IMG/VR virus record: IMGVR_UViG_3300028666_000026
Span: 1-64,000 of that record
Direction: 5' to 3' (one strand)
Source: a virus
Length of the DNA: 64,000 bases
Position 1 is the first letter of the stretch, and each line of letters opens with the position of its first letter. Of the stretch, positions 17,358 to 23,381 are shown piece after piece. A program made the position numbers and the translations under genes. The notes under the pieces are model-generated. The model saw nothing but the letters and a program-made list of their open reading frames with translations. It ran no database searches and was not told the origin of the DNA.

Positions 17358-17638
17358 TGTCCACGTATCCTGCGCCAGCGCTCTTCGCGCTCAGCTTCCA
17401 ATTTTGCACGTCGCCGTGCTTTGATTCGTTTGCCCCAGGGTGAGTATTCTACAGCCCAGATAACGAGCAGCACCAATGTGAAGATTAACGCCACCAGTAC
17501 CGCCGCAATCCACAACGGACTAAGTACCCACCACCAGGACCAAGTAATAACGTGGGTCAACTTCAACACCACAAAGGTTATGGTGAGTAGACCGATAAAG
17601 CCGACACCGCCAGACGATGACGACGAAGAATTGCTCAC
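17354..17638 (-). CDS. membrane protein
   Basis: Ser run then two TM helices, basic C-terminus. Confidence 0.4.
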   Translation of the reverse strand: MSNSSSSSSGGVGFIGLLTITFVVLKLTHVITWSWWWVLSPLWIAAVLVALIFTLVLLVIWAVEYSPWGKRIKARRRAKLEAEREERWRRIRGQ

Positions 17639-18342
17639 TTCGTACCTCCTTGCACATGAGCGCCAGAGAACATCGGGTGGTCGCCCATTGGTTGCTTGTC
17701 CATGAATGCCTTGACCTCTTCAAAACTGACAGGGCGGTACAGTGCCTGATGCGCAATTAAGCCACCTGGCCCTAAGAAAATTGGCATGCCTCCCTTTGCG
17801 CCTGGACTCAATACTTCGTATGTATTATCCACTCCCACGTCGACACTCTTTCCAAATGGCCGCAGCGCGCCGTGCGTGTGCCCAAATAAGTGCCACGCGC
17901 CGCTCTCGGCATGCAGCCATTGCCTGTTGGCGTAGTGAGACAGGAATATCTCCTGGCCTTCTACAACAATCATGTGGTGTCCCTCGCGAAACGAGGCCAG
18001 ACAATCCAGAGTGCCGTCCGGCTCGGCCAATTGTTGGTACCACAATACCGTGGCCACTTCATCATGATTGCCAGCAAGCAAATGATGCTGTCCATTCAAT
18101 CGGGCCAGACACTCCCAAACGTGATCCGCCGGGCAGCAGAACGCTGCGTCGCCCAGGTTCCACACAATGTCATCCTTGGCCACGACCGAGTTCCAGTTAT
18201 CAACAAGCATCTCGTCCATGTACAGGATTTCGGCTTTGGTGGGCTTAGTTACATCCGCTGCGAACGGTCGCCGGCAATACTTGATGATGTTCTTATGACC
18301 CAGGTGCAGGTCGCTAGTGAACCAGGTGGTCATACGGAACAC
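17635..18342 (-). CDS. calcineurin-like metallophosphoesterase
   Basis: SDLHLGH, GDAAF, GNHD, GHTH motifs in order. Confidence 0.8.
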   Translation of the reverse strand: MFRMTTWFTSDLHLGHKNIIKYCRRPFAADVTKPTKAEILYMDEMLVDNWNSVVAKDDIVWNLGDAAFCCPADHVWECLARLNGQHHLLAGNHDEVATVLWYQQLAEPDGTLDCLASFREGHHMIVVEGQEIFLSHYANRQWLHAESGAWHLFGHTHGALRPFGKSVDVGVDNTYEVLSPGAKGGMPIFLGPGGLIAHQALYRPVSFEEVKAFMDKQPMGDHPMFSGAHVQGGTK

Positions 18343-18508
18343 CCTCCTTCAATGTAAAGCACCAAGTCTACGTCGCCCAGTACCGGACCACGCGCAATCT
18401 CTATCTTGACGGCTTTCGCGTAGAAACATGCGCCGTCAGCTTTCAAACCGACCAGCACAGTTAGTGCGCCGTCTTGATCTTTCAACAATTCTCTGAGTTG
18501 TGCAACTG

Positions 18509-19012
18509 TCATGAACTTCTCCTTCTACCAATCAACACTACAGCGTCGCCCATCATGGGCAGCACACACCGGCTGACATTGTGCGTGTGTGAAGCCAACT
18601 GCTCAATGTGTGCCAGCCAATCGGCCTTACTACCTTGTCGCCCTGTGTACGGCGCAGCGTCAGGCTTTATACAGCACGGACACACGACAAATGGTCTGCT
18701 GGTGCGTGCTGCGTAAAGCACAATGTTGTCCGTGGCTTCGTCCGGGTGCATTCCCAGTACTAAAGACCAACGGCGTGGCTCGCGCCAAGTAAACTTGCCG
18801 TAATGCTGACCTGGACGGCCTTTTGCCAGTCTATGCCGCACATCGACTACGGTTACACCGTACCAACCTAGCCTGTGTAGTGCGGCCTTCAAACCACCTT
18901 TACCGCCTGCTACGTCAGCAATTTCGTTATGCCTATGCTCAGGAAATTCCGCATTTACCAAGTCGGCCATCAATGCGAATCTTCTAGGATCGCCCATAGC
19001 AAATCTCCACAA
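18509..19012 (-). CDS. putative SAM-dependent methyltransferase-like protein
   Basis: Gly-rich motif I IADVAGGKGGL followed by VTVVDV acidic beta2. Confidence 0.4.
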   Translation of the reverse strand: MWRFAMGDPRRFALMADLVNAEFPEHRHNEIADVAGGKGGLKAALHRLGWYGVTVVDVRHRLAKGRPGQHYGKFTWREPRRWSLVLGMHPDEATDNIVLYAARTSRPFVVCPCCIKPDAAPYTGRQGSKADWLAHIEQLASHTHNVSRCVLPMMGDAVVLIGRRRSS

Positions 19013-19177
19013 TGCCTCTTCGCCAACCCTGGCACCGATGGCGCGGTCCAGTAAGGGTGCCAGACTCCCTAGTCTGGATTAAGCCAGGGCTGGCGAAGAG
19101 GCACGTGCCCACTCTGCCTAGTTACCGTTCAGCAGAGTGGGCTCAGTGCCTTGTCAGTACGTGCTTAGGATCACGTA

Positions 19178-21790: not shown

Positions 21791-21832
21791 GATGATTTGT
21801 CCTCCTTGCAGGACGGTGGTGCGGGTTGAGAG

Positions 21833-22231
21833 TCAAGCTGTGACGGTGGCGTGCTGAAACTGCAAAAGCCGCAGCTCCACACTGGCTACAATTGCTGGTA
21901 CATCCAATCCTTCGCCACGATTGTCTATGGCCGTGTTAAGTTGTGCCTCGGTGATGAAGCCCAACTGGTGCGCACGTAGTATGGCCAGCATGATGCGTAG
22001 GTCGCGCCCACACACGTCGCTGTATAACATCCAAATACGTGGGCCATAGATTTGCGCTGAATCCATGTGCACCAATGCGCCCAACCCACCAAGAAAATCT
22101 TGCGGATCAATACGTGCGCCTTCTGCTAATGCTTGGCAGCACACACGTAAAGCGCCAGGATTGCCGTCGCTCATTTTAATCGTAGCGCTGTGTATTGTGT
22201 CTGTCAGCTGTAGCCTGGTAGTTTGACTCAC
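21833..22231 (-). CDS. hypothetical protein (upstream partner of MVP gene)
   Basis: 132-aa ORF 42 nt upstream of MVP. Confidence 0.45.
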   Translation of the reverse strand: MSQTTRLQLTDTIHSATIKMSDGNPGALRVCCQALAEGARIDPQDFLGGLGALVHMDSAQIYGPRIWMLYSDVCGRDLRIMLAILRAHQLGFITEAQLNTAIDNRGEGLDVPAIVASVELRLLQFQHATVTA

Positions 22232-22346
22232 TTGAGTTTCCTCCTTGCGGGGTTGAGAGTTTAGTGTTTGAATATCGCAATCATCAGCAATGCGATAAAG
22301 AATCCCATAGAAATTCCAGCGGCCAATGCGTTCGATTCACGCGCGG

Positions 22347-23381
22347 TCATCGCGTCACTCCTGTGTAGTAAAGTTTCTGAACCTCATCGCCGTACGCATC
22401 CACGATCAGCTCTTCAATGAATGCTTGGTCTGCTGTGTTTCGCAGCTTACTTACCAATGATGCCTTTTCTACCTCCTCAAGAAGCTGTTCTATTTCGCTC
22501 GCTACAGAATCGTATGGCATGCGACCCTGCTTAATGGCCAGGATACGCGGCGCGTGTGGTAGTGGAAATGTGATGGCACCAGTATTTAAAAGCTCCAGCG
22601 CCTCCCATCCAACACGTACGGCATGACTGAGCGCCTTCCAGTCAATGCCTTCGTTAGACTCGGCACGTCGTGCGCGATCGCCGTACTCTTCGTAAATGCG
22701 CTTGTAAATCTCGTAGGCCGCTTTGACTGTATTGCCAAGGCTGACCTTGCGGTTGCAACATTCGAAGAATGTTTCAGGTCGCTCGACAGTTCCACCCTGA
22801 ACTATGGCGGTGTGCTCGTCGGCTTCATCAATGAGCGCCTTATACAGAGATACGCGCACATCTTGCAAACGAGTCAACCCACCACAATCCTTAGAGCACT
22901 CAGCAAAGAACTCCATAGCCTTCTTCGCCGCCGCTACGCGACTGCCCTTAATGCCGTACTTGTTAGCCTGCTGCCGGCAGTAGCCTACAAAAGCCGCGCT
23001 CTTCTTTGTCAGGAGCAGGTTCTTGTTGGCTTGGATACGCCGCCACCATAGTAAGTTCACACCAGCCGTGGCGCCATCAATGGCCCAATCTGGGGCAAAC
23101 AACATGTCGATGGCCACCGTCTGGCCCTCCGACAACAGCTGTAGATAACGGTGCAATGCATAACTTTCGTCATCCACGTCATCGGCGGTGTTGCGCTGGC
23201 CCTCATGTACTTTGACCTTGGTACCTCGCACAGCTTCTGCCCGTTGCAGAAGTATGTCTCTGGCAGTAGGAATGTGTACTGACTTGTAGTCAGTATCGCT
23301 TTCTGGCGTAGATGTGCCGTATAAGTGGCTGCCGAATTTGATACGTACTATTGTGGCCATCACATTCCTCCCATCAAACAA
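22347..23381 (-). CDS. Pol-beta superfamily nucleotidyltransferase (RlaP-like)
   Basis: FGSHLYGTSTPESDTDY = hG[GS]x9-13DxD; later VAIDML acidic. Confidence 0.55.
   Translation of the reverse strand: MFDGRNVMATIVRIKFGSHLYGTSTPESDTDYKSVHIPTARDILLQRAEAVRGTKVKVHEGQRNTADDVDDESYALHRYLQLLSEGQTVAIDMLFAPDWAIDGATAGVNLLWWRRIQANKNLLLTKKSAAFVGYCRQQANKYGIKGSRVAAAKKAMEFFAECSKDCGGLTRLQDVRVSLYKALIDEADEHTAIVQGGTVERPETFFECCNRKVSLGNTVKAAYEIYKRIYEEYGDRARRAESNEGIDWKALSHAVRVGWEALELLNTGAITFPLPHAPRILAIKQGRMPYDSVASEIEQLLEEVEKASLVSKLRNTADQAFIEELIVDAYGDEVQKLYYTGVTR

Follow-up and report, generated by a model that had tools for sequence, protein, structure and literature searches.

Vault function is a long-standing puzzle, and phage homologs of the major vault protein (MVP) have so far been described in one preprint, without functional context. 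MVPs were reported there in tailed phages, and the genes flanking them differ between two phages (Santos et al., 2023; 10.1101/2023.11.10.566534). A second line of work concerns RNA repair: RlaP nucleotidyltransferases (NTases), kinases and calcineurin-like phosphatases have been described as RNA-repair components of large phages (PMC7824862), and a repair syntax of ligase, NTase, phosphatase or kinase, methylase and scaffold has been proposed (Burroughs & Aravind, 2016, as cited by PMC7824862 and PMC13404743). According to PMC13404743, the same work implicated bacterial MVP homologs, operon-sharing non-coding RNAs and RtcB in RNA repair. Here we analysed the gene neighbourhood of an MVP homolog in a viral stretch of 64,000 nucleotides (positions 1 to 64,000 of IMG/VR record IMGVR_UViG_3300028666_000026), hereafter the window, which represents 64 kb of a tailed-phage contig of ~105 kb.

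The genes around MVP are common, independently mobile phage accessory genes, and there is no obligate vault module. With a probability of roughly 60%, we read the locus as an accessory-gene hotspot in which the NTase and the phosphoesterase form a separate pair, probably one that heals RNA ends, beside a small, unrelated methyltransferase and a separately expressed MVP. A preliminary description of the window had suggested that the NTase, methyltransferase-like and calcineurin-type phosphoesterase genes, with a 132-aa gene, might form a vault-associated module. The genes themselves are all real and all lie on the minus strand, between 17354 and 23381 (Table 1), and the three enzyme labels, including that of a Pol-beta-type NTase, were upheld by family and fold assignments. 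The attractive idea that NTase, methyltransferase and phosphoesterase make up a module devoted to vaults is unsupported and was removed. Three testable observations take its place: the enzyme pair, the phosphoesterase as the sole neighbour that tracks MVP, and a tendency of MVP, across phage lineages, to lie among predicted RNA-end-healing genes and to end a unit of its own.

Synteny was compared across 168 MVP loci, each taken with as much as 10 kb of sequence to either side, comprising 82 loci from phage collections, 80 bacterial loci and six metagenome contigs of the nearest relatives. Together with the window, the phage set came to 89 MVP loci, which form 33 lineages when grouped at 60% MVP identity and 12 when grouped at 50%. 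Neither tblastn nor phmmer found a counterpart of the 132-aa protein, the methyltransferase-like protein, the 60-aa product of orf60 or the small membrane protein in any of the 168 loci, and tblastn of these four and the NTase against 162 MVP loci gave no match. The NTase had a single tblastn/phmmer counterpart among the MVP loci, directly downstream of MVP in L009; the divergent NTases near MVP elsewhere were visible only by profile methods. The four closest MVP-bearing relatives (L003, L163, L164 and L165), with MVPs 61–63% identical to that of the window, kept only the phosphoesterase, which lies downstream of MVP with 0 to 3 small genes in between; orf60 and the genes for the NTase, the 132-aa protein and the methyltransferase-like protein were not found near MVP in these four. 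Co-conservation with MVP therefore fails for three of the four neighbours named at the outset. What stands of the proposed module is that the phosphoesterase tracks MVP in the window's clade, where the two are adjacent in 5/5 members; the NTase, 132-aa and methyltransferase-like genes assort independently. Two more distant MVP loci (L166:12960-13739 and L168:13347-14138; MVP 58–59% identical) carry a PP2C-family phosphatase 0.5–0.8 kb downstream of MVP. This is the position of the metallophosphoesterase in the window's clade. The phosphatase may be a non-homologous replacement of another type.

Further relatives share the surroundings of the locus and have no MVP. Three loci (L256-L258) are collinear with the window across an NT5C-like gene, a DnaJ-like gene, a 254-aa gene, the ligase (59% identity) and DNA polymerase A (61%). 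They carry the closest homologs of both the phosphoesterase (54%) and the NTase (58%, E 2e-108), the two genes adjoining with an overlap of 4 nt, and have no MVP within 10 kb. In two others collinear with the window (L170 and L171), the gene most similar to the methyltransferase-like one is present (64% identity), and MVP, the phosphoesterase and the NTase are all missing. At one site, upstream of the conserved DnaJ-like gene, relatives thus hold MVP with the phosphoesterase, the phosphoesterase with the NTase, or the methyltransferase-like gene alone, and the window holds all of them, which argues for a recombination hotspot for accessory genes and not for a co-inherited module. A nucleotide search of positions 17000-24000 against phage genomes returned no match.

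The enzyme pair was found without MVP at L256:10001-11661 (and in L257 and L258), L234:9219-10534 and L192:8100-10154, with overlapping reading frames in L256-L258 and L234 and a gap of ~280 nt in L192. This adjacency suggests a two-enzyme unit, which to our knowledge is uncharacterised. A 740-aa DUF8224 protein encoded 2.3 kb upstream of the pair (L256:5433-7655) showed no similarity to the MVP profile. Among 80 phosphoesterase-anchored IMG/VR loci, MVP was present in 0/80; the NTase again adjoins the phosphoesterase in two of them, L234 and L192. When translated homologs were sought in 50,697 phage records, the NTase matched 1,505 and the phosphoesterase 1,458, marking the latter as a common phage accessory gene, as against just three phage genome records for MVP. 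The NTase proved to belong to the RlaP/NrdC.11 family of phage enzymes; this identity and the lack of co-conservation with MVP in the closest relatives both go against the vault link first proposed for it. No other phage record from cultured collections or GenBank has an MVP homolog; the three are megaphage assemblies with sizes of 462 kb and 735 kb. The megaphage MVPs in L001 (LR756500.1) and L002 (LR756501.1) are ~39% identical to that of the window, and none of the window's neighbour genes was found within 8 kb of them.

We propose that, within the early, replication and accessory arm of this phage, a hypervariable hotspot upstream of the DnaJ-like gene gathered independently mobile accessory genes. 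The NTase and the metallophosphoesterase would act as a functional pair, most likely healing RNA ends damaged by host nuclease attack: the phosphoesterase would remove a 3' or 2',3'-cyclic phosphate and the NTase would restore lost nucleotides. MVP would form an expression unit of its own, closed by a strong 3' hairpin, and would probably self-assemble; its role in infection may be separate from its neighbours or at most loosely coupled to them. The enzymatic roles of the NTase, the phosphoesterase and the methyltransferase-like protein are predicted, as is the role of MVP.

The NTase matched Pfam RlaP (PF10127) at E 4e-10, its 40.3 bits exceeding the gathering score of 23. Its match to phrog_388 had an E value of 1.2e-80, and its translation contains the Pol-beta catalytic motif G-S ... 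D-x-D (FGSHLYGTSTPESDTDY). Most of its tblastn matches are in T4-like phages, where the protein is named NrdC.11; that of Aeromonas phage Aeh1 is 38.7% identical over 96% of the protein. A sequence search against the PDB gave nothing significant. The public gene call begins at an ATG, giving 337 aa instead of the length from the upstream TTG (Table 1). The RlaP family takes its name from an association with ligases. An RNA ligase was not found in the 64 kb of the ~105-kb contig with one locus-derived phrog_968-type profile and the PHROG and Pfam scans; the sole ligase in the window resembles an ATP-dependent DNA ligase.

The phosphoesterase matched phrog_547 at E 3e-46. It falls below the Pfam gathering scores for Metallophos (20.0 against 21.5 bits) and Metallophos_2 (19.3 against 27), and close homologs carry PF00149 or PF12850. 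All five metallophosphoesterase motifs (DxH, GD, GNH, H and GHxH) are conserved, with D11, H13, G64/D65, G91-N92-H93, H136 and G154-H155-x-H157 invariant or nearly so across 43 homologs. Sequence searches of this protein and of the methyltransferase-like protein against the PDB gave nothing significant. The structural model of the phosphoesterase (pLDDT 88.4) includes a low-confidence insertion of ~20 residues and a disordered C-terminal tail, and its top PDB fold matches were 1xm7, Mre11, GpdQ and MJ0936. Weak fold matches to the cyclic-nucleotide and Ap4A phosphodiesterases Rv0805, SapH and GpdQ raise the question of whether the phosphoesterase, alone or together with the NTase, targets nucleotide second messengers in a way unrelated to MVP, for example by degrading the cyclic oligonucleotides through which CBASS, Pycsar or type III CRISPR defences signal. 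Such a role has been predicted for calcineurin-like orthologs of T5 A1 (PMC7824862), and NAMPT (NAD-salvage) and NUDIX genes occur in the same accessory regions of MVP-bearing phages. We consider this very unlikely. The best fold match, 1xm7, is the uncharacterised Aquifex protein AQ665 and so indicates no substrate, and the recurrent pairing with an RlaP NTase and co-location with polynucleotide kinase and RNA ligase fit RNA-end healing better.

Several observations count against the hotspot reading. With no RNA ligase found in the window, the RNA-repair interpretation of the enzyme pair is incomplete. The phosphoesterase ranks first among phage MVP neighbours by number of lineages (8/33 at 60% MVP identity and 4/12 at 50%, in addition to 5/5 in the window's clade) and, under the same tblastn criterion, occurs in MVP loci at ~7 to 17 times its density in the phage genome collection. 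The recurrence near MVP of the phrog_388 NTase (7/33 and 3/12), polynucleotide kinase (6/33 and 3/12) and the phrog_968 RNA ligase (5/33 and 3/12), in varied orders, exceeds the expectation under simple independence. MVP and the phosphoesterase are also missing together from the collinear locus L170. All lineage counts refer to genes within 10 kb of MVP, and that of the NTase is 7 by profile and 5 by BLAST clustering. Polynucleotide kinase ranks third among neighbour families and the NTase fourth; the second-ranked family has a median length of 217 aa. The NTase lies upstream of MVP in some loci and downstream in others.

The distribution of these families gives their recurrence a phage-specific character. 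The 80 bacterial MVP loci (L083-L162), mostly from Myxococcota, Vulcanimicrobiota and Bacteroidota, had no RlaP NTase, phrog_547, polynucleotide kinase or RNA ligase within 10 kb. Their recurrent neighbours were of housekeeping or signalling type, such as LepA, an ABC ATPase, OmpA-like proteins and kinases of the histidine or Ser/Thr class; no gene for RtcB or another RNA-repair protein was found beside MVP in the 80 loci sampled, nor were the reported RtcB-MVP operons seen. The presence of RNA-end enzymes in phage loci but in 0/80 bacterial ones indicates that the link is phage-specific, and the counts for the phosphoesterase (5/5 in the clade and 8/33 lineages) and the NTase (7/33) make a loose, phage-specific association of MVP with RNA-end processing plausible.

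This association is also seen in one distant phage clade. In 15 loci, the divergent NTase family near MVP was shown by profile searches to be phrog_388, and the gene for the phrog_388 NTase shares the downstream side of MVP with those for a metallophosphoesterase, an exonuclease of RNase T type and an RNA ligase. Directly upstream of MVP is a phrog_850 DUF2828/DUF7788 vWA protein that bears the label 'RNA-binding protein' (e.g., L082:6790-8319). The protein, of 510 aa with DUF2828 and DUF7788/vWA regions, was seen in this 15-locus clade (60% MVP identity; L048, L059, L065, L066, L081, L082 and relatives). A likeness of the DUF2828/vWA protein to the TROVE and vWA architecture of Ro60 and TEP1 was not confirmed by PDB sequence and profile searches. 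Elsewhere in the phage set, a flotillin-like Band_7/SPFH protein was encoded within 10 kb of MVP in seven loci (L034, L043, L051, L053, L062, L063 and L069; e.g., L069:20788-22317) and a NAMPT-type nicotinamide phosphoribosyltransferase likewise in seven (e.g., L168:18235-19668). The regions with Band_7/SPFH and NAMPT genes near MVP are rich in accessory genes of counter-defence type.

These patterns could mean that phage MVP and RNA-end-healing enzymes form a loose guild, in which MVP serves as a scaffold or compartment for RNA repair or protection and of which the window, with its NTase, phosphoesterase, methyltransferase and MVP, holds a partial version. We regard this as possible, if somewhat unlikely. 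In its favour, the widest-recurring non-mobile neighbours of MVP are the phosphoesterase, polynucleotide kinase and NTase, in several gene orders; one clade places MVP between phrog_850 and the run of NTase, metallophosphoesterase, RNase T and RNA ligase; none of these families occurs in the 80 bacterial loci; and the idea echoes what PMC13404743 cites from Burroughs & Aravind (2016) on MVP homologs and RNA repair. An NTase and an end-modifying phosphoesterase, both with predicted substrates, are together in the window as they are in RNA-repair sets. Yet the lineages are related and their counts non-independent, falling to three (NTase) and four (phosphoesterase) of 12 at 50% MVP identity, and ~25 of the 33 lineages are without these genes within 10 kb of MVP. 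The enzyme pair is present without MVP in the collinear relatives L256-L258, MVP-less phosphoesterase-anchored loci already carry NTase, kinase and ligase at 6–15%, a terminator-like hairpin usually stands directly after MVP, and no RNA ligase, kinase or DUF2828 gene was found in the window. Conserved operonic linkage of RNA-repair components was not found either: collinear relatives differ and a structured spacer follows MVP.

A more specific form of this idea is that phage MVP cages work with metallophosphoesterase, RlaP NTase, polynucleotide kinase and RNA ligase, and in one clade with the DUF2828/vWA protein, protecting or repairing tRNAs and other RNAs during infection, with the window again a partial example. 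This we think unlikely, for the window's partial set as for the cages in general. If true, it would give MVP its first testable functional context outside eukaryotes and a lead on an ancestral RNA-handling role of vaults; if the loose association reflects function, phage systems would offer a tractable test of the proposed link between MVP-type scaffolds and RNA repair.

The hotspot reading also draws on how MVP appears to be expressed. The spacer that follows the window MVP is predicted to fold into three hairpins, including a 21–22 bp stem closing a branched domain, with no U-run. Its minimum free energy is -101.2 kcal/mol against -63.1 ± 4.0 in shuffles (z = -9.45), and only one inverted repeat in the window is longer than the one it contains. 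It had no Rfam match at E ≤ 1. A repeated mobile palindrome was considered and dropped, as no further copy of the long hairpin arm was found in the window or IMG/VR. Candidate roles for the spacer are those of an element for RNase III or RNA stability, of an atypical terminator or of a small RNA. Relatives of the window have ordinary terminator-like hairpins at this position, and most phage MVP loci show a GC-rich hairpin and then a U-run after MVP, that is, an intrinsic terminator. Over the 150 nt after phage MVP stops (L001-L082 and L163-L168), the median z was -3.1 compared with -0.9 at control gene ends, and z fell below -3 at 52% of MVP ends as against 11% of all controls and 19% of controls with intergenic gaps ≥60 nt. 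Such hairpins suggest that MVP usually ends its own transcription unit, which argues against an operon with the downstream genes and, judged from these folding predictions, would place MVP at the end of its unit in many phages unrelated to one another. A separate unit fits a highly expressed, self-assembling protein. A scan of positions 17000-24000 for promoter and terminator consensus sequences found no more sites than in shuffled sequence.

The MVP itself matched Pfam MVP_shoulder at 8.5e-23 and Vault_3 at 5e-11. Its residues 370-832 align, at E 1e-19, with the rat and human MVP structures (rat residues 342-809), and >6,200 homologs were found at E ≤ 1e-10, the nearest at 62–63% identity. 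The preliminary description had further imagined that the neighbours are cargo of the vault or enzymes that modify such cargo; in eukaryotic vaults, their analogues would be PARP4, TEP1 and vault RNA. The genes are physically close in the window, the phosphoesterase stands beside MVP throughout the window's clade, and eukaryotic vaults do house nucleotide-acting enzymes (PMC12280208; 10.64898/2026.05.01.722283). The idea is nevertheless extremely unlikely, and nothing in the analysis supports it. The NTase, phosphoesterase and methyltransferase-like genes are far commoner without MVP than with it, MVP-adjacent gene content varies even among close relatives (as in the 2023 preprint), and an MVP-interaction (INT-like) domain was not found. 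The cluster yielded no homolog of TEP1, TROVE or PARP: none of its seven genes encodes a TEP1-like TROVE/vWA or PARP partner, and the DUF2828/vWA profile from other MVP loci was silent in the window. An R-S-E ADP-ribosyltransferase noted earlier elsewhere in the window was not among the 20 larger window proteins scanned. An Rfam scan of positions 17000-24000 found no RNA at E ≤ 1. The odd small RNA that had been noted elsewhere is most likely the transfer-messenger RNA (tmRNA) at 40234-40676, which is of a known RNA type and not a vault RNA.

The methyltransferase-like protein matched Methyltransf_32 (PF13679) at 19.5 bits, below the gathering score of 27; many of its 77 homologs, of ~160 aa, carry PF13679 in precomputed annotation, and D33, G37 and G39 of its motif I, DVAGGKG, are invariant. 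Its AlphaFold model (pLDDT 94.4) matched 636 PDB chains at E ≤ 0.001, all of them class I methyltransferases, and on this model the protein is a class I S-adenosylmethionine (SAM)-methyltransferase fold of no specific subfamily. Its true start is likely the ATG at 18997 (162 aa), which is preceded by GGAG. Homologs at 57–64% identity lie in phage loci without MVP, and another adjoins a P22-type portal gene. The 132-aa protein belongs to a family of 1,326 representative clusters (50% identity) at E ≤ 0.001 with conserved motifs GNPGA, DPD and IWMLY.DVCG. A Pfam scan of 44 homologs returned no consistent family, and the family is not in Pfam, PHROGs or NCBIfam.

The features of the locus and the RNA genes of the window are collected in Table 1. 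The methyltransferase-like gene, orf60, the phosphoesterase and the membrane protein gene overlap successively by 4, 13 and 4 nt, and these overlapping stops and starts suggest translational coupling and probably make the four one downstream operon; the membrane protein gene, which overlaps the phosphoesterase stop, closes the tightly packed run. Orf60 and the structured spacer are two details that the preliminary description did not contain. Orf60 had no homologs in the family libraries (Pfam, PHROG and NCBIfam), and NCBIfam gave no match for any of the seven proteins.

Table 1. Coordinates of the MVP neighbourhood and of RNA genes in the window.
Feature	Position	Strand	Length	Basis or remark
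Pol-beta NTase, RlaP / T4 NrdC.11 family (phrog_388)	22347-23381	-	344 aa from TTG start	
Unknown protein	21833-22231	-	132 aa	No Pfam, PHROG or NCBIfam match
Full-length MVP homolog	19178-21790	-	870 aa	MVP_shoulder and Vault_3 matches
Structured spacer, directly 3' of the MVP stop codon	19013-19177	-	165 nt	Folding energy, inverted repeat
Small class I SAM-methyltransferase-fold protein (Methyltransf_32-like)	18509-19012	-	167 aa	Model and weak Pfam match
orf60	18330-18512	-	60 aa	Between methyltransferase-like gene and phosphoesterase; also a public gene call
Calcineurin-like metallophosphoesterase (phrog_547)	17635-18342	-	235 aa	Profile, motifs, model
Membrane protein (phrog_1374)	17354-17638	-	94 aa	phrog_1374 at E 4e-23; weak holin-like Pfam matches
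Permuted (two-piece type) tmRNA	40234-40676	+		Rfam RF04321, E 3e-13
tRNA-Gln	39904-39976	+		Beside tmRNA
tRNA-Thr	39997-40072	+		Beside tmRNA
tRNA-Met	11277-11351	-		In early arm

The minus-strand arm of the window encodes DNA polymerase A, the DNA-ligase-like gene, a primase, an SNF2 helicase, exonucleases, NUDIX and a dCMP deaminase. We take the plus-strand half for the structural arm, judging by its layout and by one open reading frame of 1,417 aa. The permuted tmRNA, the tRNAs and the best NTase matches, which are in phages of Erythrobacter and Caulobacter, together hint that the host is an alphaproteobacterium.

Compared with known systems, the window shares parts with several and matches none in full. 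Its NTase is 37–45% identical over its full length to the NrdC.11-like proteins of T4-like, Caulobacter and Erythrobacter phages. It differs from the RlaP family in that no RNA ligase was detected near it or in the 64-kb window, and the phosphoesterase, its usual partner, is set apart from it by MVP and three other genes. The phosphoesterase differs from phrog_547 and AQ665-like proteins by the ~20-residue insertion and the sub-threshold Pfam Metallophos score, and its linkage to MVP is a feature of the window's clade, seen in 0/80 other loci of the family at large. With the RNA repair systems (Pnkp/Hen1, RtcB-Ro/TROVE and SPFH-scaffold) the window has these types of component in common: a Pol-beta NTase, an end-modifying phosphoesterase, a methyltransferase and, as the scaffold-like part, a protein whose shoulder domain is SPFH-like. 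Neither RNA ligase nor kinase was found, the components assort independently in relatives, and the methyltransferase-like protein is not specifically similar to Hen1, which comes no higher than 44th and 49th in a list of hundreds of equally good fold matches.

The eukaryotic vault has a shell protein homologous to the window MVP, with its repeats, shoulder and cap-helix region, and likewise has nucleotide-acting enzymes nearby. TEP1/TROVE, PARP and vault RNA, however, had no detected counterpart in the window cluster, and the neighbouring enzymes come from unrelated families that are not conserved with MVP. The closest parallel is with the phages of Santos et al. (2023), which like the window carry a full-length MVP in a tailed-phage genome, outside the structural module and among variable neighbours. 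The window phage, at ~55% GC, is GC-richer than those gut phages and only distantly related to them. What is new relative to that work (10.1101/2023.11.10.566534) is the recurrent theme of phosphoesterase, RlaP NTase and kinase, together with terminator-like hairpins, across 89 phage MVP loci.

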